Source: Candidatus Leptofilum proximum (GTDB taxonomy: Bacteria; Chloroflexota; Anaerolineae; Promineifilales; Promineifilaceae). Taken from it: 64,000 bases of DNA. Shown in pieces: positions 3,727-64,000 of the stretch (position 1 is the stretch's first letter; every line of letters starts with the position of its first letter). The position numbers were made by a program, and so were the translations under genes. The notes under the pieces were generated by a model that saw nothing but the letters and a program-made list of their open reading frames with translations, was not told the origin of the DNA and did not search any database. Location of the stretch: contig JADJXK010000002.1 in assembly GCA_016710325.1 (NCBI GenBank), positions 946,622 to 1,010,621 on the forward strand. The letters run 5' to 3'.

Positions 3727-4581
3727 ATGGGTTTTCCGACTTGGACATTGATTGGCATGGGCGTTACGGCCGTTCTTGCCCTGCTTATGACGATACTGGC
3801 CTACCTGGCCCAATCGCCGCGCGCCCTCATGCGCCTGGGACTGGTGGGCCAGCGGCTGGATTTGCGCGTGAAGCTGTTTACCGGCTACGCGCTGGCCAGC
3901 CTCATCCTGATGCTGGGCTTTTTTCTAGCCGGGGTGCCGTTGAACGCCCCCGCCACCGTGGCCGAAGCCACACCGCTCAGCGAAACGGCCGTTCTCGAAC
4001 CCACCTCAGCCGTCAGCGAAAGCGGCGCCATGGGCGCTTTGCCGCCATCATCCGAACCAACCAACTTTGTCATTATTAACGAGGATGAGCCGGAAGACGC
4101 CAGCACTACCCAAACCCCGTCCAGCGGTGCGTTTGGCGGACCGCCGCCGGGCAGCGTGGATGAGGTGGCCACGGAAGAAGTAACCCCCTCTGCCACACCG
4201 GAACAAGCCGGACCTTCCCCGACTCCCGGTGATACCAGCGAGACGGCAACGGCCGTTCCCACCAACGCCCCAGCCGACGCCAACACCGCCACTCCTAGCC
4301 CCAGCCCCACGGCAACGGCCACACCGCTGCCCACGGCCACGCCTACACCCACCATCACCCCAACGCCGATTGCTGGCGCTACGGGCACTATCAGCACCAA
4401 CGGCAGCACTCTCTGGGTGCGGCGTTCGCCGGGTGGCCAGCAGCTGGTGATTGTGCAGAATGGTGAGCTGGTGATTGTGGAAAACGGCCGTGCCAATCAG
4501 GGCGGCATCCTCTGGCGTGAAATTCGCACCGTGAACGGTATCGTGGGCTGGGTCCAGGCTGAGTTTCTAGAAGAGCAATAA
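3727..4581 (+). CDS. Membrane-anchored protein with a Pro/Thr/Ala-rich linker and a C-terminal bacterial SH3 domain
   Basis: Two TM-like segments, a low-complexity PT-rich linker, and a C-terminal TLWVRRSPGG...VIVENGRAN...WREIRTVNGIVGWVQAEFL region (SH3b-like). An alternative TTG start lies at 3709. Confidence 0.7.
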   Translation: MGFPTWTLIGMGVTAVLALLMTILAYLAQSPRALMRLGLVGQRLDLRVKLFTGYALASLILMLGFFLAGVPLNAPATVAEATPLSETAVLEPTSAVSESGAMGALPPSSEPTNFVIINEDEPEDASTTQTPSSGAFGGPPPGSVDEVATEEVTPSATPEQAGPSPTPGDTSETATAVPTNAPADANTATPSPSPTATATPLPTATPTPTITPTPIAGATGTISTNGSTLWVRRSPGGQQLVIVQNGELVIVENGRANQGGILWREIRTVNGIVGWVQAEFLEEQ

Positions 4582-5048: not shown

Positions 5049-5116
5049 AGTAAAAAGTGAGATGTGAACGTGGCCCTTACTTCTCACTTTTTACTTTTTA
5101 CTTTTCACTCTTCTCC
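5049..5116. repeat. Hairpin plus tandem CTTTTNA-type units between convergent genes
   Basis: AGTAAAAAGTGAGA / TCTCACTTTTTACT (14-bp stem), then TTTTTAC TTTTCAC TCTTCTC. It overlaps the last codons of the ABC1 kinase gene. Confidence 0.8.
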
Positions 5117-7039: not shown

Positions 7040-7127
7040 TAGCCATCCAGATTTCATAGGGTTCGGTGTGAAGCGCGAAACGTGAAACGTGATGCCTCTC
7101 TGGTCACGTTTCACGTTTCCCGCATCA
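7040..7127 (-). repeat. GTGAAACGT-family dispersed element, copy 1
   Basis: GAAACGTGAAACGTGA / TCACGTTTCACGTTTC (16-bp stem) plus a conserved flank. Confidence 0.8.
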
Positions 7128-7164
7128 CAACTTTCAACCTCGTGAATTTCCAAAGAACTGCCAA

Positions 7165-11850: not shown

Positions 11851-11943
11851 AATTCGGGTCTTTCGGATTTCGTAGGACTTGGCATGAAACGTGAAGCGTG
11901 AAACGTGATTTTTCCTGGTCACGCTTCACGTTTCACGCATCAC
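11851..11943 (-). repeat. GTGAAACGT-family dispersed element, copy 2
   Basis: GAAACGTGAAGCGTGAAACGTGA ... TCACGCTTCACGTTTCACGC plus the conserved flank CGGATTTCGTAGG. It lies between convergent genes and overlaps the stop codon at 11940. Confidence 0.8.
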
Positions 11944-20036: not shown

Positions 20037-21836
20037 ATGCTGCAAAAGCTCAACCTGCCCATCAAACCCTACTGGGATTTGCTGGCCAGCTACCTGAAAC
20101 CGCAAAAAAAGACGGTGCTGTGGCTGGCGCTGCTGCTGGTTGTCAGCATCGGTTTGCAGCTGGCCAACCCGCAAATCGTCAAATATTTCATCGATACAGC
20201 AAGTGAACCGGTTTCCAGCGGCACGGCCGCTTTCCAGCAAGGTCTGCAAAATCTGCTTGGGGCAGCGGCCCTGTTCATGGGCGTGGCCATCGTGCGGCAG
20301 GTGATTGCCTTAACGGCCGTTTACGTGGGTGAAAACGTCGCCTGGACCGCCACCAACGCCTTAAGAGCGGATCTCGCTCTACACTGCCTGCGGCTGGACA
20401 TGGCCTTCCACAAGCAGCACAAGCCGGGCGAACTCATCGAGCGCGTCGATGGCGACGTGAACAAACTGGCCAACTTTTTCTCCCAGCTGTTTATCCAGCT
20501 CACCAGCAACGTGCTGCTGCTCGTTGGCGTGATTGTGCTGCTGTGGCTGGTGGATTGGCGCGTGGGGGTGTCGATTACGGCCGTTTCCCTCCTCGGCGTG
20601 CTGGCGTTGAACTACCTGCGCACCCTCACCGTGCCCCGCTGGGAAGCGCTGCGCCAGACCGAAGCCACCCTGTTTGGCTTCCTCGAAGAGTGGCTCACCG
20701 GCGCCGAAACAATTCGCACCGCGGGTGCCGAACCGTACATCGTGCAAAAAATGCTGCTGCTGGGACGCGAGCGCTGGCTGCGCGTGCGAGACGCCATCAA
20801 GGTCAACGTCTTCGTCTGGAATTTGCCGCTGGGCGTTTTTACCCTCGCCTACATCGCCGCCCACATCTTTGGCACCACCCTCTTCCGCGAAGGCACGCTG
20901 ACGATTGGCGGTATCTACCTCATTTTTTATTACATCGACGTGATTAAAGAGCCATTGTGGAGCATTAACAGGCAGATCGAGGATTTGCAGCGGGCCGCCG
21001 CCAGCATTCGCCGCATCATGGCCCTGCAGGCGGAGCAGCCCACCATGCTCGATGGTCCCGGCGTGCACGTAACCCCTGGTCCGCTGGCTGTCACTTTCGA
21101 CCATGTCTCTTTCTTCTACGCCGACGACCCGGACACGATGATTTTGCAGGATATCGACTTCTGCCTCGAACCAGGCACGGTGCTGGGATTGCTGGGGCGC
21201 ACCGGCAGCGGCAAATCGACCCTCACCAAGCTGCTCTTCCGCTTTTACGATCCCAGCGAAGGGGCGATTTTGCTGGGCAACGATGATGTTCGATTTGATT
21301 TGCGCGACGCCCGGCAGGCGGAACTGCGCCGCCACATCGGGCTGGTGACGCAGGAGGTCCAGCTGTTCCACGCCAGCGTGCGTGACAACCTGACGCTGTT
21401 TGACCCCACCATTAGCGACGCCCAAATCCTGGCCGTGCTGGACGATCTGGGCCTGATGCCCTGGCTGGACAGCCTGCCCGGTGGACTTGACTCACCCTTG
21501 CAGGCGGATGCCAGCCTGTCGGCGGGAGAAGCGCAGCTGCTGGCCTTTGTGCGCATCTTCCTGGCCGATCCGGGGCTGGTGATTATGGATGAGGCGTCGT
21601 CCCGGCTGGACCCGGTGACGGAAATGAAGATCGAGCAGGCGATTGACAAGCTGCTGGCCAACCGCACGGGCATCATCGTCGCTCACCGACTGACCACCGT
21701 GCAGCGCGCCGACGAGATCATGATTTTGGGTGACGGCCGTATTGTGGAATACGGCCGTCGCACCCACCTAGCCGCCGACCCCACCTCCCAGTTTGCCCAA
21801 CTGCTGGTGACGGGGTTGGAGGAGGCAATTACCTGA
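20037..21836 (+). CDS. ABC exporter, fused permease/ATPase (MsbA type), subunit 1
   Basis: A 6-TM domain plus an NBD with GRTGSGKST (Walker A), LSAGEAQLLAF (signature), [11 protein letters not shown] (Walker B) and AHRL (H-loop). Confidence 0.92.
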   Translation: MLQKLNLPIKPYWDLLASYLKPQKKTVLWLALLLVVSIGLQLANPQIVKYFIDTASEPVSSGTAAFQQGLQNLLGAAALFMGVAIVRQVIALTAVYVGENVAWTATNALRADLALHCLRLDMAFHKQHKPGELIERVDGDVNKLANFFSQLFIQLTSNVLLLVGVIVLLWLVDWRVGVSITAVSLLGVLALNYLRTLTVPRWEALRQTEATLFGFLEEWLTGAETIRTAGAEPYIVQKMLLLGRERWLRVRDAIKVNVFVWNLPLGVFTLAYIAAHIFGTTLFREGTLTIGGIYLIFYYIDVIKEPLWSINRQIEDLQRAAASIRRIMALQAEQPTMLDGPGVHVTPGPLAVTFDHVSFFYADDPDTMILQDIDFCLEPGTVLGLLGRTGSGKSTLTKLLFRFYDPSEGAILLGNDDVRFDLRDARQAELRRHIGLVTQEVQLFHASVRDNLTLFDPTISDAQILAVLDDLGLMPWLDSLPGGLDSPLQADASLSAGEAQLLAFVRIFLADPGLVIMDEASSRLDPVTEMKIEQAIDKLLANRTGIIVAHRLTTVQRADEIMILGDGRIVEYGRRTHLAADPTSQFAQLLVTGLEEAIT

Positions 21837-21837
21837 G

Positions 21838-21909
21838 TGGAGAATAGAGATTGGAGATTGGAGACTAAAAATCTCCAATCTCCAGTCTCCAATCTCTTCC
21901 AATTTCCAC
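21838..21909. repeat. Periodic hairpin repeat, GGAGATT family
   Basis: GGAGAAT AGAGATT GGAGATT GGAGACT, loop AAAA, then ATCTCCA ATCTCCA GTCTCCA ATCTCTT. It fills the gap between the two ABC genes. Confidence 0.85.
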
Positions 21910-21910
21910 T

Positions 21911-23740
21911 ATGAACACATTATCGTATTACTGGCGGCTCATCCGCTTTACGCCCAAATACTATGCCGCCGACATCATCACGATATCGATTCACTTTGCC
22001 GTGACCACCGCACTGGGGCTGATTTTGCGCGCCTTTTTTAATGGGCTCACCGGGGAATCCAGCTTTGCCCTGCCGCTGTGGCCCATCGTTGGGCTGCAAA
22101 TTGCCTACGCCATCATCGCTGCGCTGTCCCAAATGGGCGCAGGCTGGGCCTTTATCAACTTCGAGCACATCTCCTATAACCTGCTTATCCGCAACATGCT
22201 GGCGCGCGTCCTGCAAAGGCCCGGCTCCCGCCCGCTGCCGCAAAACGAGGACGGCACCAGCATGTCCACCGGGCAAGCGATCAGCACTTTTCGCGACGAC
22301 ACCCACGAGCTGCTCATGGCCATCGTGGCCGTGGATGACGTGATTGGCCTGCTCATCAGCGCGGGCATTTCGCTGACAATCATGCTGCAAATCAGCGTGC
22401 CGGTGACGCTGGGCACGTTTGTGCCGCTGTTGATTGTGGTGGGCATTGCCCAGCGGCTGGGGGAGCGGGCCAAGCGGTATCGCAAAGCCAGCCGCCAGGC
22501 CACCAGCCAGGTGACGGGCATGATTGCCGACATGTTCAACAGCACCCAGGCGCTTAAGGTAGCCAACGCCGAAACGCGGGTCATCGACCGCTTCCGCCAG
22601 GTCAACGAGCAGCGCAAGCAGACGATGGTGCGCGACAAGCTGCTCACCCAGCTGGTCGATGCCCTCAGCGCAGGCACCATCGAACTGGGCATGGGCTTGA
22701 TTTTGCTGCTGGCGGCGCGGCAAATGTACCTGGGCACGTTTACCCTGGGTGATTTTGCCCTGTTTGCCGCCTACATCTGGCCCGTCACCCAGCTGTTCCG
22801 CATCTTCAGCCGGATGATTACCGGCTACAAGCAGGCGGGCGTCTCCACACAACGTATGGAAACGATGATGCAGGGCGCGCCGGTGGGCGCGGTTGTTGCG
22901 CCTCAGGAGCTGCACCTGGACGGCAGGCTGCCGCCGCTGCCGTACACGCCGAAAACGGCCGTCCACACCCTACAAAACCTATCCACCAAAAATCTCAACT
23001 TCACCTACCCCAGCAGCGAAAACGGCATTCACGACATCAACTTGTCGCTCAAGGCCGGTCAGTTTGTGGTCATCACCGGGCGCATTGGTGCGGGCAAAAC
23101 AACGCTGCTGAAGGTGCTGCTGGGGCTGCTCCCGGCGGATGCAGGGGAGATTTTGTGGAACGGCCGTCCCGTCACTGATCCCGCCAACTTCATGGCGCCA
23201 CCGCGCGTGGCCACCACCATGCAAATTCCGCGCCTGTTCAGCGAGTCGATTCGGGACAACATTTTGCTGGGCCTGCCGGAAAGTGAGGTGGATGTGCGAG
23301 GGGCGGTGCGGACGGCCGTTTTCGAGCAAGACCTGGCACAAATGGAGCAGGGGCTGGACACCATCGTGGGGCCGCGCGGCCAGCGATTGTCTGGCGGGCA
23401 GGCGCAGCGTGTGGCGGCGGCGCGCATGTTTGTGCGCCAGCCGGAGCTGCTGGTGTTCGATGATTTGTCGAGTGCGCTGGATGTGGAGACGGAGAAGGTT
23501 TTGTGGGAAAGATTGTTTAATAGAGATGGGAGATGGGAGATGGGAGATGGGTTAAATCAATCTCCAATCTCCAATCGCCAATCCCCTACTTGTTTAGTCG
23601 TCACTCACCGTCGCACAGCTTTACGCCGGGCGGATCATGTGGTGGTATTGAAAGACGGCCGTATCGCCGACGAAGGCACGCTGGACGAACTGCTGCTGCG
23701 TTGTGAGGAAATGCAGCAGCTGTGGCAGTTGGAAACTTGA
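21911..23740 (+). CDS. ABC exporter, fused permease/ATPase, subunit 2, carrying an in-frame repeat insertion
   Basis: GRIGAGKTT (Walker A), [12 protein letters not shown] (signature), [12 protein letters not shown] (Walker B/D-loop) and VVTHR (H-loop). The extra segment [21 protein letters not shown] lies between the D-loop helix and the H-loop. Confidence 0.9.
23522..23586. repeat. Periodic hairpin repeat (GGAGATG/ATCTCCA) inside the ABC CDS
   Basis: AGAGATG GGAGATG GGAGATG GGAGATG, loop GGTTAAATCA, then ATCTCCA ATCTCCA ATCGCCA ATCCCCT. It is in frame with no stop codon. Confidence 0.85.
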
Positions 23741-28022: not shown

Positions 28023-28114
28023 GGTAATCGGTAATCCGTTATCCGTAAGCGGTAATCCATTCACTGATTACCGCTTACCGTTCACCGCTTACCGTTCACC
28101 GTTCACCGCTTACC
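28023..28114. repeat. Periodic hairpin repeat, CGGTAAN family (7-nt units)
   Basis: GGTAATC GGTAATC CGTTATC CGTAAGC GGTAATC, a loop, then ATTACCG CTTACCG TTCACCG CTTACCG TTCACCG TTCACCG CTTACC. It lies between kdpB and kdpC. Confidence 0.85.
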
Positions 28115-41726: not shown

Positions 41727-41784
41727 AAGTGGCAAGTGGCAGGTGAAAACTTACTTGCCACCTGCCACTTGCCACCTGCCACTC
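41727..41784. repeat. Periodic hairpin repeat, GTGGCAN family (7-nt units)
   Basis: GAAGTGG CAAGTGG CAGGTGA, a loop, then CTTGCCA CCTGCCA CTTGCCA CCTGCCA. Confidence 0.85.
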
Positions 41785-47089: not shown

Positions 47090-47149
47090 ATAAGTAAGTG
47101 AGTAATTAGGTAATTGGGTAATTACTCACTTACCCAATTACTCAATTAC
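47090..47149. repeat. Periodic hairpin repeat, GTAATTNN family (8-nt units)
   Basis: AAGTAAGT GAGTAATT AGGTAATT GGGTAATT / ACTCACTT ACCCAATT ACTCAATT AC. Same family as 1747..1808 and 4633..4670. Confidence 0.85.
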
Positions 47150-55817: not shown

Positions 55818-55920
55818 GGGCGAGGCAGGTGGAGAAAAGATCGTTTTGTGTGGCTACGATGTCATCCACCTGCCTCGCCCCTACTTTTCACTTTCCACTT
55901 TTCACTTCTCACTTTCCTCC
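55818..55920. repeat. Hairpin (GGGCGAGGCAGGTGGA stem) followed by tandem CTTTTCA-type heptamers
   Basis: A 16-bp stem (55818-33 / 55865-80), then CTTTTCA CTTTCCA CTTTTCA CTTCTCA CTTTCCT. Confidence 0.8.
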
Positions 55921-56237: not shown

Positions 56238-56247
56238 AAAATAGCCA

Positions 56248-56306
56248 TCAAAGATTTCGCAGATTTACCAGATTTAATCTTCTTAATCTGCGAAATCTCT
56301 GATTTT
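56248..56306. repeat. Periodic hairpin repeat (9-nt units, AGATTTNNN)
   Basis: AGATTTCGC AGATTTACC AGATTTAAT ... AATCTGCGAAATCT. It has a 14-bp stem followed by TTTTT. Confidence 0.8.
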
Positions 56307-56326: not shown

Positions 56327-56710
56327 ATGACTCCACGCTTAAAACTTTGCCTGATTCTATGCCTGCTATGCCTGGCAGCCTGCGGCGGTGGGGCAGAGGC
56401 TGCACCGCCCCCGCCGACCCTTAGCCCGCAGGCGCAGTTGGGCAAGCAAGTTTTCACCCGTGACTGTGGTGCCTGCCACAGCACTTCCCCCGACACGATC
56501 ATTGTTGGCCCCTCATTGGCAGGCGTGGCCAATCGCGCCGCCACCCGCGTGGCGGACCAGGATGCCTACACTTATCTGCTCACCTCCGTCATGCAGCCCG
56601 ACGCTTACCTGGTAGAAGGGTACGAAAACCTCATGCCCAACAACCTCAGCAAACAGCTCACCGGCGAAGAACTCGACGCCGTCATCGCCTATCTGCAAAC
56701 ACTTCAGTAG
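56327..56710 (+). CDS. Class I c-type cytochrome lipoprotein
   Basis: Lipobox LAAC. CGACH heme site. A downstream Met (NLMP) could be the axial ligand. ATG at 56327 preferred over the TTG at 56315. Confidence 0.85.
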   Translation: MTPRLKLCLILCLLCLAACGGGAEAAPPPPTLSPQAQLGKQVFTRDCGACHSTSPDTIIVGPSLAGVANRAATRVADQDAYTYLLTSVMQPDAYLVEGYENLMPNNLSKQLTGEELDAVIAYLQTLQ

Positions 56711-56757
56711 TGGCAGGTTGCAAGTTGCAGGTTGCAAGTTGCAAGTCGCCAGCAACC
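56711..56757. repeat. Tandem heptamer array (TGCAAGT/TGCAGGT)
   Basis: GGCAGGT TGCAAGT TGCAGGT TGCAAGT TGCAAGT CGCCAGC. No clear inverted arm. Confidence 0.8.
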
Positions 56758-56772
56758 AAACCACTTAACACG

Positions 56773-56852
56773 CCCTATCACCCTATCACCTTGTCACCTT
56801 GTCACCTTGTCACCCCCTCACCCCTTCACCCCGTCACCCCCTCACCCCTTCA
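56773..56852. repeat. Tandem octamer array, 10 units of CCNNNTCA
   Basis: The ten units are: CCCTATCA twice, CCTTGTCA three times, then CCCCCTCA, CCCCTTCA, CCCCGTCA, CCCCCTCA and CCCCTTCA. Confidence 0.9.
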
Positions 56853-56933
56853 ATTCCTGGTTCCACACTACCGGTTGCTGGTACAATTCAACAGCCACAA
56901 ACAACTAGCTACTATGCAAAAGAGGAGAATCCC

Positions 56934-59171
56934 ATGTCCACTGTACTGAAATGGATCGTTCGTATCTTTGGCGTCCTGATTGGCGTGCTGCTGCTTATTT
57001 TTGTCGTGGCCGCCGCCATGCCCGCCAAGGCCGACCCCGACGTAGGCGAAAACCACGGCGCGGGGGCCAGCAGCGTGCAGCCATCGTACACCGGCTTGCA
57101 GCGTGAATTCCCGGCTCTGAACGAAACGGCCGCTAACCCCACCACCGACGCCAAAGCCGAGCTGGGCCGCTTACTCTTCTTCGATCCGGTGCTGTCTAAC
57201 AACAACGACACTGCCTGCGCCACCTGCCACCAGCCGGATTTGGGCTTTGCCGACGGCCGTATCCACGCCGTCGGCCCCACCGGTGTTGAGCAGACGCGCA
57301 ACACCCCCGGCCTGTGGAATGTTGGCTATGCGCAGAATTTGTTCTGGGACGGCCGTCTCGACTCCCTCGAAGCCCAATCCGAAATTCCCCTCACCCACCC
57401 GGATGAAATGGGCGTGGCCGACACCGCTGGCCTGGTCTCCGAAGTGGCGGCCATCGACGAGTACGAAGCGATGTTCAACGCCGCCTTCGATGACGGCGTG
57501 ACGCTGGCCAACATTGAAAACGCCCTGGCGGCGTTCCAGCGCACCCTCATCAGCAACAACAGCCCGTTTGACCAGTACGCCGCGGGCAAGGTGGATGCGC
57601 TGACGCCCAGCCAGCGGCGCGGCCTGGCGCTGTTCCGCTCCGGCGCAACGCGCTGCTTTGAGTGCCACACCGCCCCCACCTTCGCCAGCGACGGCTTCCG
57701 CGTGGTGGGCGTCCCCAGCGACGATCCGGGCCGGGCGGGCGTGGTGGCCGATGGCCTGGTAGGCGCGTTTAAGGTACCGTCGCTGCGCAACGTGGCCCTG
57801 ACGGCGCCATACATGCATGACGGCTCATTGGAAACGCTCGAAGCGGTGGTCAATTTTTACGCTGACGGCGGCGGCCGCCTGCACGGGCAAGAAAATGTGG
57901 ATGTGTTTGTCCAGGGCTTTGAGCTGACTGATCAGGAGCGTTTGGATCTGGTGGCGTTCCTCTACGCCTTAACAGATGAAAGCAATATGCCGGAAATTCC
58001 CACGGCCGTTCCCTCCGGCCTGCCCGTCATTGCACCCACCGATAACCCGGCTCGCGCCGAAGTGGCAGCGCACAACGTCGGTGGTAACAGCGGCATTGAT
58101 TTGGGCGACCGGGAACCAATGACGATTGTGGTGCAAGAAGGGGAGAGTGTGCAAACGGCCGTCGATCGCGCCCGCCCCGGTGACATCATCGAAGTGCCCT
58201 ACGGCATTTATCACGAACGTGTCGTTATCGACATCAACGACATCACCCTGCGCGGCATCCCCAACGAGGCGGGTGAATGGCCCATCTTCGACGGCGAAGG
58301 CGTGCGGACGGAAGCCGTTATCGCCTCTGGCAACAACTTCACCGTGGGCAACCTGCACGTGCGCAACTACACCGACAACGGCGTCCTGGTGGAAGGTGTG
58401 ACCGGCGTGCATTTCCACGACATCTTTGCCGAAAACGTGGGCACTTACGGCGTCTACCCCGTACGCAGCACCGAGGTGTTGATTGAGCGCGTGGAGGTCA
58501 CCGGCGTGGATGATGCCGGGATTTACGCCGGACAGTGCGAAAATGTCATTGTGCGTGACAGCGTGGTGTATGGCAATGTGCTGGGCATCGAGCTGGAAAA
58601 CACGATCGGCGGCGAAATCTACAACAACCACGCCTACGACAACACGGTAGGCATCTTCGTCGTCCTCTTGCCGCAGCTCACTTCAAAAGTATCGGCCAAC
58701 ACGCTAGTGTACAACAACATCGCCGAGGGCAACAACCACGAAAACTTCGCCCCACCTGGAGCAATGGCCGAGATTGCTCCGTCCGGTGTTGGCATCCTGC
58801 TGCTGGCTACAGACAACGCCGAGGTGTATGACAATACCATCCGCGACAACAAGACCACTGGCGTGGCGGTCTTCAGCCTCACCAGCACCGGCGCGTTTGA
58901 TGTAAACGAGGTGGATGTGGGGCCGCTGCCGGAAAACAACTGGATACACGGCAACACCTACGAAAACAACGGCTATGATGCCGATCCATTTGTGAAGGAT
59001 TTAGGGATTCCCACGGCCGATATACTCTGGGACGGCACGGGTATGGACAACCGCTTCAACGAAGAGGGTGCTTCCACCTTCCCGCCGCTGGTGCCAGGTG
59101 ATGGCTGGCCCAGCTTTGTGCGGCGCGGCTACACCAACATCCTCGGCTTTTTGGTGGACCAAATCCTTTAA
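56934..59171 (+). CDS. Di-heme cytochrome c peroxidase (CCP/MauG family) fused to a right-handed parallel beta-helix (NosD/PbH1-like) domain
   Basis: N-terminal TM anchor. CATCH and CFECH heme motifs with PSLRNV...PYMHDG. The C-terminal half has repeated G..V....N..V.DN units. Start at the ATG at 56934 with an AGAGGAG SD, because the ORF start at 56799 lies in the octamer array. Confidence 0.85.
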   Translation: MSTVLKWIVRIFGVLIGVLLLIFVVAAAMPAKADPDVGENHGAGASSVQPSYTGLQREFPALNETAANPTTDAKAELGRLLFFDPVLSNNNDTACATCHQPDLGFADGRIHAVGPTGVEQTRNTPGLWNVGYAQNLFWDGRLDSLEAQSEIPLTHPDEMGVADTAGLVSEVAAIDEYEAMFNAAFDDGVTLANIENALAAFQRTLISNNSPFDQYAAGKVDALTPSQRRGLALFRSGATRCFECHTAPTFASDGFRVVGVPSDDPGRAGVVADGLVGAFKVPSLRNVALTAPYMHDGSLETLEAVVNFYADGGGRLHGQENVDVFVQGFELTDQERLDLVAFLYALTDESNMPEIPTAVPSGLPVIAPTDNPARAEVAAHNVGGNSGIDLGDREPMTIVVQEGESVQTAVDRARPGDIIEVPYGIYHERVVIDINDITLRGIPNEAGEWPIFDGEGVRTEAVIASGNNFTVGNLHVRNYTDNGVLVEGVTGVHFHDIFAENVGTYGVYPVRSTEVLIERVEVTGVDDAGIYAGQCENVIVRDSVVYGNVLGIELENTIGGEIYNNHAYDNTVGIFVVLLPQLTSKVSANTLVYNNIAEGNNHENFAPPGAMAEIAPSGVGILLLATDNAEVYDNTIRDNKTTGVAVFSLTSTGAFDVNEVDVGPLPENNWIHGNTYENNGYDADPFVKDLGIPTADILWDGTGMDNRFNEEGASTFPPLVPGDGWPSFVRRGYTNILGFLVDQIL

Positions 59172-61235: not shown

Positions 61236-62201
61236 ATGAGCAAATTTGCGGCTTTTGAAGAATTTGAAGATTACCAGTATCAAGACAACAGTCGGGAAGC
61301 CCGGCGCAGCCGGACCAAGCCTAACAAAAACAAGCAAGTGCGGAACGGCCGTCCCCAACAAACCATGCAGGATATCCGCGAAATGGATGACGGCATCGAA
61401 ACCTGGGTGCCCAGCTATGCCAGGGCACTCGATCCGCAGCACCACGAGCGGCAGTGGGTCATTGAATCCGTTGGTCCCTTTTACCGTGACCAAATCGTCA
61501 CCGACGTGACCCGTCTGGTGAAAGGGGGCAAAGAGGCCAATGTCTATGCCTGCACCGGCCATCCAGCCACAGGTATAGACCTCATTGCAGCCAAACTGTA
61601 CCGTCCGCGAGAACTGCGCCACCTGAAAAATGACGCCATCTACAAGGCAGGCCGCCAGCTGCGGGATGCAGACGGTAAAGAGATCAAGGGGCGACGTGTC
61701 AAGCTGGCGCTGAGTAAAAAAACCAGCTATGGCAAGTCCGTTGATATTCAATGGTGGATTGGCAATGAATACCGCACCCAAACCCAGTTGTTTGAGGCCG
61801 GAGCCGATGTGCCCAAACCCATTGCCCACCAGGGCAACACCGTCCTGATGGCCTACATTGGCGATGAATATGGCCCGGCACCCACGCTGAGCGAGGTGCG
61901 CCTGCCCCGCGAGGAAGCAGCGCCGCTGTTCCGGCGCATCATGGACAATGTGGCGCTAATGCTGGACAACCACCTCATCCACGGCGACCTGTCGGCCTAT
62001 AACATTTTGTACTGGGATGGCGCAGTGTACCTGATCGACTTCCCGCAGATGGTGGAGGCGCGACACAACCCGCATGCTTACGAGCTGCTGGAGCGGGACA
62101 TCACCCGCGTATGTGATTACTTTGCCGGTTATGGCATTAAAACCAATCCGGTGGCGCTGACGCACAGCCTGTGGGATCCGTATATGGGGCCAGGTGGATA
62201 A
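61236..62201 (+). CDS. RIO-type (RIO1 family) atypical serine protein kinase
   Basis: GGKEANVY (P-loop-like), LIHGDLSAYNIL (catalytic loop), IDFPQ (metal-binding loop) and a basic N-terminal extension. Confidence 0.8.
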   Translation: MSKFAAFEEFEDYQYQDNSREARRSRTKPNKNKQVRNGRPQQTMQDIREMDDGIETWVPSYARALDPQHHERQWVIESVGPFYRDQIVTDVTRLVKGGKEANVYACTGHPATGIDLIAAKLYRPRELRHLKNDAIYKAGRQLRDADGKEIKGRRVKLALSKKTSYGKSVDIQWWIGNEYRTQTQLFEAGADVPKPIAHQGNTVLMAYIGDEYGPAPTLSEVRLPREEAAPLFRRIMDNVALMLDNHLIHGDLSAYNILYWDGAVYLIDFPQMVEARHNPHAYELLERDITRVCDYFAGYGIKTNPVALTHSLWDPYMGPGG

Positions 62202-62206
62202 GACAA

Positions 62207-64000
62207 ATGACACGAGAAATGAGTAACTGGGAGCTGCTGACGCAATATTTACGGCCGTACACCGCCCGTCTCTTAGGGCTGAGCACCCTGCTGGCCGTCA
62301 GTATTGCCCTCCAGCTCTACGGCCCCCAGGTCATTCGTGACTTTTTGGATGCGGCGCAAAGCGGTACGGCCGTACGGCCGTTGGTCACCCTGGGCGCGCT
62401 GTTTTTTGTGGTGACCGTGGCGCAAAAGGCCGTGGAGCTGTGGACGACTTACCTGAGTGAAGACCTGGGTTGGGCGGCCACCAACGGCCTGCGCGCCGAC
62501 CTGGCTGCCCACACCATGCGGCTGGACATGGGTTTCCACAAGCTGCAAACCCCCGGCGAACTCATCGAGCGGATCGATGGCGACGTGAGCAACCTGGCCG
62601 AGTTTTTCTCGCGGCTGGTGATCCGGGTGTTGGGCAACGCGGTGCTGGTCATTGGCATCCTGGTGCTGCTGTTCCGCGAGGATTGGCGCATTGGGCTGGT
62701 GGGGCTGGGCTACGGCCTGCTCACGCTGGGGCTGCTGCAAATCATCCGCAAACCGACGGTGAGCGTCTGGCGCGAGGTGAGCAAGGGATATGCCAGGCTG
62801 CACGGCTACGTTGAGGAACGCATCGGCGGCACGGAAGACATTCGCGCCAATGGCGGCGAGCCGTACGTGTTCCACAAGCTCTACCCGCTGCTGGCCGACG
62901 TGGCCAAAAGCCGCGTCAAGGCCGACGTGATCGGTGGTTACACCTTCAGCAGCAGCTACATGCTGTACGTCCTAGCGATTGTGGTCACGCTGGCGCTGGC
63001 GGGAACGTTTTTCCTGCAAGGGCAGATCACCATTGGCACGCTGTTTCTGCTGGTGGCCTACGTGCGGCTGATGGAATCGCCAATTAAGTACATCCGGCGG
63101 CAAATCAGCGACATGCAGCGCGCCGTGGCCAGCATCGGCCGTATCAACGAGTTTATGCGCCTGGAACCAGATGTGAAGGAGTCCGTAACTGCCAGTTTGC
63201 CCGATGGGGCAACGGCCGTTGCCTTCCACGGTGTCTCGTTTGCCTATAAAGACCGGTTGTCGGTAGTCGGTGAACGGTTATCGGTGAACGGATTGCCGAT
63301 TACGGATAACCGATTACCGCTTACCGATAACGGATTACCGAACGTGCTGCACGATGTCACCTTCACCCTGGAGGCGGGCAAAGTGCTGGGGCTGCTGGGG
63401 CGGACGGGCAGCGGCAAGACGACTCTGACGCGGCTGCTCTTCCGGCTGTACGACGTGGATGCGGGGCGCATCACGCTGGACGGCACCGACCTGCGCCAGG
63501 TGAGCCTGGCCGACGTGCGGCAGCACATCGGCATGGTGACCCAGGACGTGCAGCTGTTTGCCGCCACCGTGCGGGACAATCTGACGCTGTTCCGCCGCTA
63601 CGATCCAGACAAACCACCGATTCCCGACAGTGAGATCGAGGCCGCCCTGCACACGCTGGGTCTGGGCGACTGGCTGGCCAGCCTGCCCGACGGCCTGGAC
63701 ACGGAACTAAAAACGGGCGGGCAGGGGCTGTCGGCGGGGCAGGCGCAGCTGCTGGCTTTTACGCGCGTCTTTTTGCGCAATCCGCAGCTGGTGATTCTGG
63801 ACGAGGCCTCATCTCGGCTGGACCCAGCCACGGAGCAGCTTTTAGAACGAGCGATTGACACGCTGCTGACCGGCCGTACCGCCATCATCATCGCCCACCG
63901 CCTGCACACCGTGCAGCGCGCCGACGACATCTTGATTTTGGAGAACGGCTGCATCCAAGAACACGGCCCCCGCTTACACCTATTCAACAATCCCAATTCC
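62207..64000 (+). CDS. ABC exporter, fused permease/ATPase, paralog of 20037..21836; 3' end beyond the window; carries an in-frame repeat insertion
   Basis: Hand translation from the ATG at 62207 gives [18 protein letters not shown]...[14 protein letters not shown]. The NBD has [31 protein letters not shown] and AHRL. The frame stays open to nt 64000. It is not in the ORF track because no stop lies in the window. Confidence 0.88.
63254..63343. repeat. Periodic repeat, CGGTAAN family, inside the ABC CDS
   Basis: Thirteen successive 7-nt units: GGTTGTC GGTAGTC GGTGAAC GGTTATC GGTGAAC GGATTGC CGATTAC GGATAAC CGATTAC CGCTTAC CGATAAC GGATTAC CGAAC. They translate as [29 protein letters not shown]. 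Confidence 0.85.

Follow-up and report, generated by a model that had tools for sequence, protein, structure and literature searches.

A heptamer-repeat hairpin lying in frame within the nucleotide-binding domain of an ABC exporter from Candidatus Leptofilum proximum

Introduction

How does a hairpin built of 7-nt repeats come to lie within the catalytic domain of an intact transporter gene, and what keeps its two arms alike? The question is raised by a 64,000-nt stretch of DNA from Candidatus Leptofilum proximum (Chloroflexota; Anaerolineae), the whole of which we refer to as the window, where a 65-nt element at positions 23522-23586 forms part of the gene for an ATP-binding cassette (ABC) half transporter. 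A preliminary description, made from the sequence alone, saw in this element a periodic hairpin repeat that had inserted in frame into the nucleotide-binding domain (NBD), and likened it to the Rickettsia palindromic elements (RPEs). That interpretation is supported as a whole and can be extended: the element is shared among relatives, and the site it occupies is used recurrently. Heptamer repeat families, known in cyanobacteria from 1990 onwards, are still unexplained in origin and function; one of them, STRR1, is said to have been given the unit CCCCAGT by Mazel et al. in that year. We argue that the element is probably a passenger copy of a dispersed periodic hairpin of this STRR-like kind, tolerated as a disordered loop of the protein and kept semi-palindromic by concerted evolution at the level of the DNA.

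Results

The element within its host gene

The host gene (21911..23740, + strand) has an intact open reading frame (ORF) and encodes a half transporter of ABC subfamily B, with a transmembrane domain and an NBD in 609 residues. Its catalytic motifs are all present (Walker A, the LSGGQ signature, Walker B LLVFDD, D-loop SALD and H-loop H566), and with Walker A, Q-loop, LSGGQ, Walker B, D-loop and H-loop in this order, and a transmembrane domain of the exporter fold, the protein has the features of a type IV (ABCB-like) ABC exporter. A deposited “Anaerolineaceae bacterium” protein (P0001, encoded on a 5.9-Mb contig; Pfam PF00664 and PF00005) matches it with 100% identity, its sequence matches in the PDB include ABCB1 and YheI (E = 1e-63), and Foldseek matches its AlphaFold2 model to MsbA, TM287/288, BmrCD and TmrAB with TM-scores of 0.6-0.7, the values for MsbA, TM287/288 and TmrAB being 0.63-0.70. 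Among relatives, amino-acid divergence of the gene (0.055-0.17) is far below divergence at four-fold sites (0.24-0.38), and the gene is therefore under purifying selection.

The element is read in frame, with no stop codon, as residues R538-P559 of a predicted disordered linker of 23 residues (codons N537-P559; 23519..23587, + strand), so that the reading frame stays open through it as the preliminary description had it. The linker sits between ...LWERLF and TCLVVTHR, the latter being the strand that carries the H-loop. Three lines of evidence agree on this position, after the helix that follows the D-loop and before the H-loop strand: the sequence itself, the alignment of solved ABCB chains, which show a gap of 13-17 residues exactly at the insert, and the AlphaFold model (mean pLDDT 84.6), in which a coil at residues 545-560 separates a helix (525-544) from a strand (561-564). 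Within the model the insert is a low-confidence coil, with pLDDT below 50 at residues 541-555. From established NBD architecture we take this turn to lie on a face of the RecA-like core that points away from the ATP site and the dimer interface. The partner half transporter encoded upstream (599 aa; 20037..21836, + strand) reads LDPVTEMKIEQAIDKLLANRTGIIVAHR at the homologous position and has no insert there, nor has a paralog at 62171..>64000; both absences had been claimed before and are upheld by the translations.

The element reads AGAGAT(GGGAGAT)x3, then GGGTTAAATCA, then ATCTCCA ATCTCCA ATCGCCA ATCCCC. Its left arm of 27 nt (23522..23548, + strand; alignment columns 13-39) and its right arm of 27 nt (23560..23586, + strand; columns 51-77), the latter complementary to TGGAGAT units, enclose an 11-nt loop that varies between alleles (23549..23559, + strand; columns 40-50). 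Tandem Repeats Finder reports two arrays of period 7, one of 4.1 copies at 23523-23551 with 100% matches and one of 3.7 copies at 23558-23583. The periodic hairpin is in this respect confirmed as an observation, but its stem in the window is imperfect: the left-arm units have G throughout where relatives show T, and GGGAGAT opposite ATCTCCA leaves one G/A mismatch, and hence one base pair lost without compensation, in every heptamer. Because of these mismatches the fold is weak (-26.4 kcal/mol, z = -2.0; antisense -29.8 kcal/mol, z = -3.6). The same uncompensated T-to-G change, having swept all left-arm units, accounts for a canonical G-quadruplex (G4) motif, GGGAGATGGGAGATGGGAGATGGG, on the sense strand at 23528..23551; the eight other alleles described below lack it, and the two strands of the 64 kb hold only five such motifs, this one included.

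Several more familiar identities were tried for the element and rejected. There is no T-tail 3' of the stem within the coding sequence (CDS), which speaks against an intrinsic terminator inside the gene, and a search of Rfam at E <= 1 gave no match on this copy, which speaks against a known RNA family; sub-threshold matches resembling miRNA precursors were confined to the intergenic sibling. A TTGTTTA direct repeat flanks the element at 23513-19 and 23590-96 and was considered as a target-site duplication, but its copies are 77 nt apart, reflect LF/CL codons and are not conserved in other alleles.

Within the 64 kb the only relative of the element in the GGAGAYT family is this intergenic sibling, at 21835..21909 (+ strand; hairpin 21838-21896), in which GGAGATT/GGAGACT units face AATCTCC/AGTCTCC units; it fills the 74-nt gap from the partner gene's stop codon to the ATG at 21911, and folds at -40.7 kcal/mol (z = -7.8). 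That the two belong to one repeat family, as first proposed, is borne out by the motif GGAGATNGGAGAT: allowing at most one mismatch it has nine matches in the window, confined to these two loci (21846-21890 and 23522-23579), against a chance expectation of 0.08, and none of 100 shuffles reached nine. The two copies also have in common their left edge, AATAGAGA, and the core of the loop, TAAA(A/T).

The same element in close relatives

Eight further assemblies (L002, L003 and L115-L120), encoding proteins 82-93% identical to that of the window, carry an element of the same length at the same place; in the metagenome scan for close relatives only one was at least 90% identical. The nine assemblies come from different projects (NCBI, JGI, ENA and Logan), and in all of them the segment is 72 nt long, aligns without gaps and is in frame; variants longer or shorter by 7 nt were not seen among the nine hairpin alleles. 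Stems of the eight relatives are near-perfect over 25-27 bp and fold at -39 to -57 kcal/mol, compared with -26 to -28 kcal/mol for the window. Over the 27-pair stem 91.8% of the alignment cells are paired, whereas sliding the partner by 1-3 columns leaves 32-54% paired.

The arms do change, and they change together. In L003, L118 and L120 both members of four pairs have been exchanged, UA giving way to CG at one and the same position of each successive heptamer, such that GGAGATT/AATCTCC units have become GGAGACT/AGTCTCC; on the aligned alleles this unit-wise change in both arms is to be read as concerted. The cells that are not Watson-Crick pairs are nearly all transitions and are symmetric with respect to strand, with 10 G.U and 13 A.C. 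Such symmetry speaks against selection on a sense-strand RNA, which we rejected on this count, and fits a process acting on DNA.

The hairpin DNA is at the same time well conserved. Within the subgroup L002, L119, L117 and L116 the insert diverges by 0.06-0.07 as against 0.26-0.38 at four-fold sites, that is, 4-5 times less. Divergence over the 65 nt is 0.097, close to that of the Walker B/D-loop region, for a gene mean of 0.165. A local recombination tract was considered as the source of this low value and rejected, since the flanking windows of 66 nt diverge normally.

A derived linker at a recurrently occupied site

The state from which the insert arose can be seen in more distant homologs. 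Out of 80 loci fetched from a genome collection the segment could be located in ~76 (Chloroflexota, Bacillota, cyanobacteria and others), and in most of these the stretch from D-loop to H-loop measures 33 aa with a 5-residue linker followed by TCLVVSHR, as opposed to 51 aa in the window. Five residues are thus the common state in Chloroflexota, Bacillota and others, and by this comparison the insert-bearing linker is the derived state. Linker length in a set of 117 homologous proteins varies between 5 and 34 residues. The preliminary description had put the addition at about 21 residues; the linker has indeed been lengthened in frame, but the net gain over the 5-residue ancestral-type linker is 18 codons (54 nt). 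It had also proposed a comparison with orthologs to see whether the insert is lineage-specific: most orthologs have the short linker, but the insert is not private to this genome, given that at least eight other assemblies carry an element of equal length. Where orthologs have longer linkers these are made of periodic repeats or hairpins; an equally long segment of unrelated sequence in repeat-free orthologs was not encountered in the comparison.

Relatives at 86-90% identity were found with other occupants of the site. Four of them (L001, L004, L005 and L081) have an 8-nt tandem array, GCAGAGGN/GCAAAGGN, without a complementary arm, and a fifth (L121) has a linker of 7 residues that resembles a contraction of the 8-mer array. 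In a neighbour-joining tree calculated with the linker masked, hairpin, 8-mer-array and short alleles are interspersed among the close relatives. Other unit families occupy the site in distant orthologs at 45-60% identity: a GCGGAGT hairpin in L084 (-45.7 kcal/mol), a GCGGATT hairpin in L082 (-34.6 kcal/mol), a TAACTGA-like hairpin (…LSVISDQ…LITDN…) at the exact NBD site in L028 (-26.5 kcal/mol), an AATGCGG array in L008, a half-hairpin in L085, two unrelated and non-complementary arrays in L083, and a decayed GGGGATT/GGAGATC element in L021, with a similar loop and with the exact GGGGATT unit as a part of its left arm; for P0049 a GGGGATT unit can be deduced from the peptide. Sequence comparison thus marks the turn between the post-D-loop helix and the H-loop strand as a recurrent hotspot, with different unit families in different lineages.

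A separate case is that of L141, an ortholog with 82% identity, where a hairpin that is not of the GGAGATT type, AAAAATCTGATTTCT-TAG-AGAAATCAGATTTTT, lies at 4100-4160 and encodes ...QKSDFLEKSDFS...; its “SDF[SL]EKSD” peptide is also found in orthologs of 57-59% identity (P0045-47, P0054 and P0073). The L141 gene (protein P0028) is split at the insert site because 1 nt is missing from a run of five Ts (T5) that lies upstream of the hairpin; the label of the contig gives 2.73x coverage, and the split is most likely a sequencing error.

The wider class in the window and beyond

Periodic arrays or hairpins number ~13 in the 64 kb, one about every 4-5 kb, and only two of them lie within a bona fide CDS. 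Apart from those discussed individually, hairpins or arrays of 7- or 8-nt units are found at 1747-1809, 5049-5109, 7067-7129, 11882-11943, 28023-28114, 41727-41783, 47094-47149, 55883-55915 and 56247-56303, nearly all of them in short intergenic gaps, often just after stop codons or between convergent genes. Their units form a limited repertoire (GTAATTAR, GTGAAAC, GGTAATC, AAGTGGC, AGTTGCA, AGTAAAA and GGAGATT), each occurring about twice. Other Anaerolineae loci, too, have GGAGAYT arrays at positions unrelated to this one (L042, L065, and between genes in L116 and L120).

Units of the GGAGAYT, GGGGATT and GCGGAKT families are free of stop codons in all six frames, and unit families that bear stops (GGTAATC, TAACTGA) are found within CDS only with degenerate arms. 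A stop-codon filter was nonetheless rejected as the main explanation of which families enter genes; half of all heptamers are free of stops in both orientations, and the filter is therefore weak.

The gap between the two ABC genes is filled, among relatives, by a hairpin of the GGAGAYT type, one of the AATTACC type or one that is not periodic; with occupants that differ among relatives, hairpin turnover there must be fast. When this slot, ~100 nt before the ATG, was compared among the window and L001, L081, L115, L117 and L121, close relatives were seen to differ between a GGAGAYT hairpin and an unrelated AATTACC 8-mer hairpin, the latter being present in L115, the nearest relative of the window. 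A link between the allele in the CDS and the intergenic hairpin 1.6 kb upstream was considered and proved inconsistent, in that L115 and L117 combine GGAGATT in the CDS with AATTACC upstream.

Three further observations concern short repeats more generally. At 56709-56852, immediately before ORF 56799..59171 or running into its start, there is a composite array of (AGTTGCA)x5 followed by (CCCTGTCA)/(TCACCCC)x~9, without a complementary arm. Exact (GGAGATT)x~3 arrays occur in 19 IMG/VR contigs (L122-L140), mostly of ~0.6 GC, where some of them adjoin other heptamer arrays; an inverted arm is usually lacking, and as to carriage by phage these contigs are uninformative. Lastly, the octamer palindrome ACGGCCGT has 127 copies in the 64 kb (for example at 254, 962, 1525 and 63212) where 1.4 are expected, a number reached in 0 of 100 shuffles; it is a HIP1-like, hyper-abundant palindrome with a CGGCCG core, which the RP codons (CGGCCG) of the ancestral-type linker resemble.

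A second site before Walker A

The other element found within a CDS points to a second hotspot, the beta1-beta2 turn immediately preceding Walker A. In the window it is occupied in the paralogous ABC gene at 62171..>64000, where a periodic hairpin (CGGTNNT facing ATTACCG units; 63255-63341, + strand) lies in frame after the A-loop Tyr and before Walker A, folds at -48.2 kcal/mol and gives this segment 32 aa compared with 5-7 in most loci; an intergenic sibling of its unit family is present at 28023-28114. The left arm of the hairpin is degenerate exactly where pure GGTAATC would give an in-frame TAA. The same turn holds (EQLAVSS)x7 in P0077 (locus L065) and RLSVIGYQSDPPITDN in P0097, and the inserts of P0097 and the window paralog (RLSV…PITDN) are of the LSV-/ITDN type. 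The DNA of L065 at 4108-4338 is made of GAGCAGT/TAGCAGT heptamers with a super-period of 21 nt, followed by a partly complementary array, and amounts to an in-frame insert of 77 residues. In the transmembrane domain, by contrast, inserts of this kind were not observed.

Discussion

Origin and upkeep of the element

A scenario for the passenger copy can be proposed as follows. The element belongs to a class of convergent, mutually pairing tandem arrays, with a unit of 7 nt or sometimes 8 nt, that populates this Promineifilaceae/“Leptofilum”-like genome, and a copy of the GGAGAYT family would have reached fixation, in frame, at the turn that joins the post-D-loop helix to the H-loop strand, either in the common ancestor of the subclade or by spreading through recombination within it. 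Since the unit has no stop in any of six frames and the turn faces away from the ATP site and the dimer interface, the insert would be read through and tolerated as a disordered surface loop of 18-23 residues, in a transporter kept under purifying selection. Slippage or unequal exchange may then spread a variant along one arm, and intrastrand template switching (quasipalindrome correction), or else conversion from other copies, may transfer it to the opposite arm; template switching combined with slippage within arms seems the most economical mechanism. In the window genome the T-to-G variant has swept the left arm only; this weakens the stem, and the G4 motif is incidental to it. We also infer that pairing is kept up by mutation rather than by selection and that the element is without function.

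Some of the results sit poorly with this scenario. The interspersed allele types of the neighbour-joining tree imply a history that involves replacement or recombination. The conservation of the hairpin DNA is about that of the Walker B/D-loop region, and the nine alleles show only ~2 unit-level changes, by a rough estimate fewer than unconstrained concerted evolution predicts, so that selection on the sequence could have had a part. Very divergent orthologs have identical families at this site (L021; L141 vs P0045-47), a recurrence that could also reflect targeting. In the 64-kb window and the compared alleles we found neither a mobilising enzyme nor a target-site duplication nor conserved termini, and “insertion” is therefore a reading of the comparison and not of a mechanism; translation of the insert, likewise, is predicted from the open frame.

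The leading alternative is a cis-acting structure within the CDS that is maintained by selection, be it a cruciform or single-stranded DNA hairpin, a heptamer array that binds a protein, or an mRNA stem, in which last case it would be a candidate site of RNase III action or of ribosome pausing, by which transporter dosage or NBD folding is tuned. We regard it as unlikely, and yet it stays a live rival in view of the conservation of the arms, which exceeds that of synonymous sites, 4-5 times so within subgroups, and is comparable with that of the catalytic motifs. The compensatory UA-to-CG changes in four pairs, the persistence of strong near-perfect stems in eight lineages, and the retention of unit families across very divergent genomes, with their resemblance to the cyanobacterial GGGGA(C/T)T, would all be expected of such a structure. 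But the window allele has lost a base pair per heptamer with nothing to compensate for it, close relatives do without the hairpin (having the one-armed 8-mer array or, in L121, the 7-residue linker), and most orthologs have no insert at all; the mismatch types are strand-symmetric and give no indication of selection on the sense-strand RNA, neither a terminator-like tail nor an Rfam family was found for the in-CDS stem, and concerted change can arise by mutation alone (PMC7202029, PMC8604942). Bolder, and to our minds rather doubtful, is the proposal that periodic heptamer hairpins are an actively maintained class of Anaerolineae, related to the cyanobacterial and Xanthomonas repeats and served by a dedicated system of recognition and copying, and that these hairpins repeatedly colonise, or are recruited to, two particular NBD loops of ABC exporters, where intragenic pairing would be selected as a regulator of the transporter through cleavage, pausing or replication-coupled switching.

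The element might instead have grown in place, from a 7-nt seed extended by slippage and copied by template switching, its likeness to the intergenic copy being convergent. One-armed arrays of 8-mers in close relatives (GCAGAGGN in L001, L081, L004 and L005), the seemingly contracted L121, and the half-hairpins and non-complementary arrays of L085, L083 and L008 are in keeping with such growth; yet the GGAGAYT unit is present at unrelated loci of this and other genomes, the in-CDS and intergenic copies agree in left edge and loop core, and a limited repertoire of units recurs in the window, which together make growth in place improbable. More improbable again is a phase-variation locus, in which gain or loss of one 7-nt unit would shift the frame, remove the H-loop and the C-terminus and so switch the exporter off reversibly. 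Seven is not a multiple of three and tandem heptamers are prone to slippage; against this, the nine hairpin alleles are of one length and in frame, the arrays have only ~4 units, and the single gene split exactly at the site, L141/P0028, was rejected as evidence of phase variation for the reasons of sequence quality given above. An assembly artefact or a decaying pseudogene is effectively refuted: beyond the general difficulty of assembling repeats nothing speaks for it, the element is found at the same place in nine assemblies of different projects, the catalytic motifs are intact, and amino-acid divergence is far lower than that at four-fold sites. The passenger copy thus remains the probable reading.

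Significance

Protein-coding palindromes have been treated as essentially a peculiarity of Rickettsia, and here a palindrome of another kind is found in a free-living member of the Chloroflexota with a large genome. Its main interest lies in the recurrence of in-frame heptamer hairpins at two turns of a universal ATPase fold, in the compensatory evolution within a gene, and in the link to heptamer families that are unexplained. The recurrences provide a map, drawn by nature, of the loops in which ABC NBDs tolerate insertions, and a tractable case in which the origin, the spread and the arm complementarity of heptamer repeat families can be followed. They also call for caution in the annotation and alignment-based phylogeny of metagenome-assembled genomes from Chloroflexota, where such elements inflate length variation, give rise to repeat-derived peptides and coincide with assembly and frameshift errors.

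Comparison with known systems

RPEs are palindromic repeats that are translated in frame at positions tolerated by the protein fold (Ogata et al. 2000/2002, per review PMC10969869); they measure ~100-150 bp, have a family consensus coding for a conserved peptide, and are found in Rickettsia only, in unrelated housekeeping genes (PMC10969869). The element of the window resembles them in being a hairpin repeat that is also found between genes and in lying in frame where the fold can accommodate it. It is set apart by its length of 65 nt, its composition of 7-nt units and a loop, and its host in the Anaerolineae; moreover, the peptide of the heptamer hairpins is not conserved between unit families, one and the same protein loop has been occupied repeatedly by different families, and the host is free-living. 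The parallel drawn by the preliminary description therefore stands as an analogy of outcome, an in-frame palindrome in a permissive loop, and not as membership of the family.

With REP and REPIN elements (PMC3116915, PMC3733652) the class shares short hairpin repeats in many copies, mostly between co-directional or convergent genes, but it differs in its periodic arms, in the many unit families that coexist and in its copies within CDS. REP and REPIN elements are mobilised by RAYT transposases (PMC3116915, PMC3733652); the GTAG/CGTC head typical of REPs is lacking here, CTAC being present only in the window copy, at its 3' edge, with CCAC or TCAC there in the eight other alleles and none of these in the sibling. 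Nor is the element a MITE, for no target-site duplication bounds terminal inverted repeats, TTGTTTA not being conserved.

Closer in the length of the unit are the TAACTGA heptamers, a family found in more than one phylum, in Beggiatoaceae, cyanobacteria and Bacteroidetes, for whose transfer between them no mechanism is known (PMC4679880). Some sets lie within ORFs in the stop-free orientation and encode LSVISYQ, but almost all are direct repeats upstream of start codons, with one inverted set in 170, and a role in translational regulation has been proposed (PMC4679880). The L028 hairpin at the NBD site and the LSV-/ITDN-type inserts of P0097 and the window paralog are reminiscent of these sequences; they are insertions in protein loops, however, and not direct upstream repeats with a proposed regulatory role.

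For the way in which the arms evolve, the nearest models are those in which template switching homogenises the arms of inverted repeats in coding genes without selection, as seen in yeast (PMC8604942) and in E. coli quasipalindromes (PMC7202029). They explain complementary multinucleotide change in both arms of an intragenic inverted repeat; what they describe is the evolution of existing inverted repeats and not a dispersed family, in yeast and E. coli and not in Chloroflexota.

No description of such elements in Chloroflexota was found in the searchable literature, and the nearest class is that of the dispersed heptamer repeats of Nostoc, GGGGA(C/T)T, and Xanthomonas, GGGAATC, which are mainly intergenic and typically have ~4 units (PMC4692102). 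In Xanthomonas 70-75 convergent pairs per genome form potential stem-loops; the repeats of both genera are reported as under-represented within coding sequence, and in-frame hairpin copies have not been described for them (PMC4692102). The window element has the tandem arrays of 7-nt units, in 4.1 and 3.7 copies, its class is spread over many mostly intergenic loci, and its two arrays converge and pair as they do in Xanthomonas. Its left arm is a G4 motif like the Nostoc and Xanthomonas repeats, although most of the in-CDS alleles have GG tracts only and are therefore, unlike those repeats, not G4-competent. The unit GGAGA(T/C)T agrees with the Nostoc unit at six of seven positions, with the same alternation of C and T, and is thus similar but not identical; what distinguishes the elements described here from these STRR-type repeats is their presence in another phylum, the Chloroflexota, and their hairpin copies lying in frame within coding sequences.

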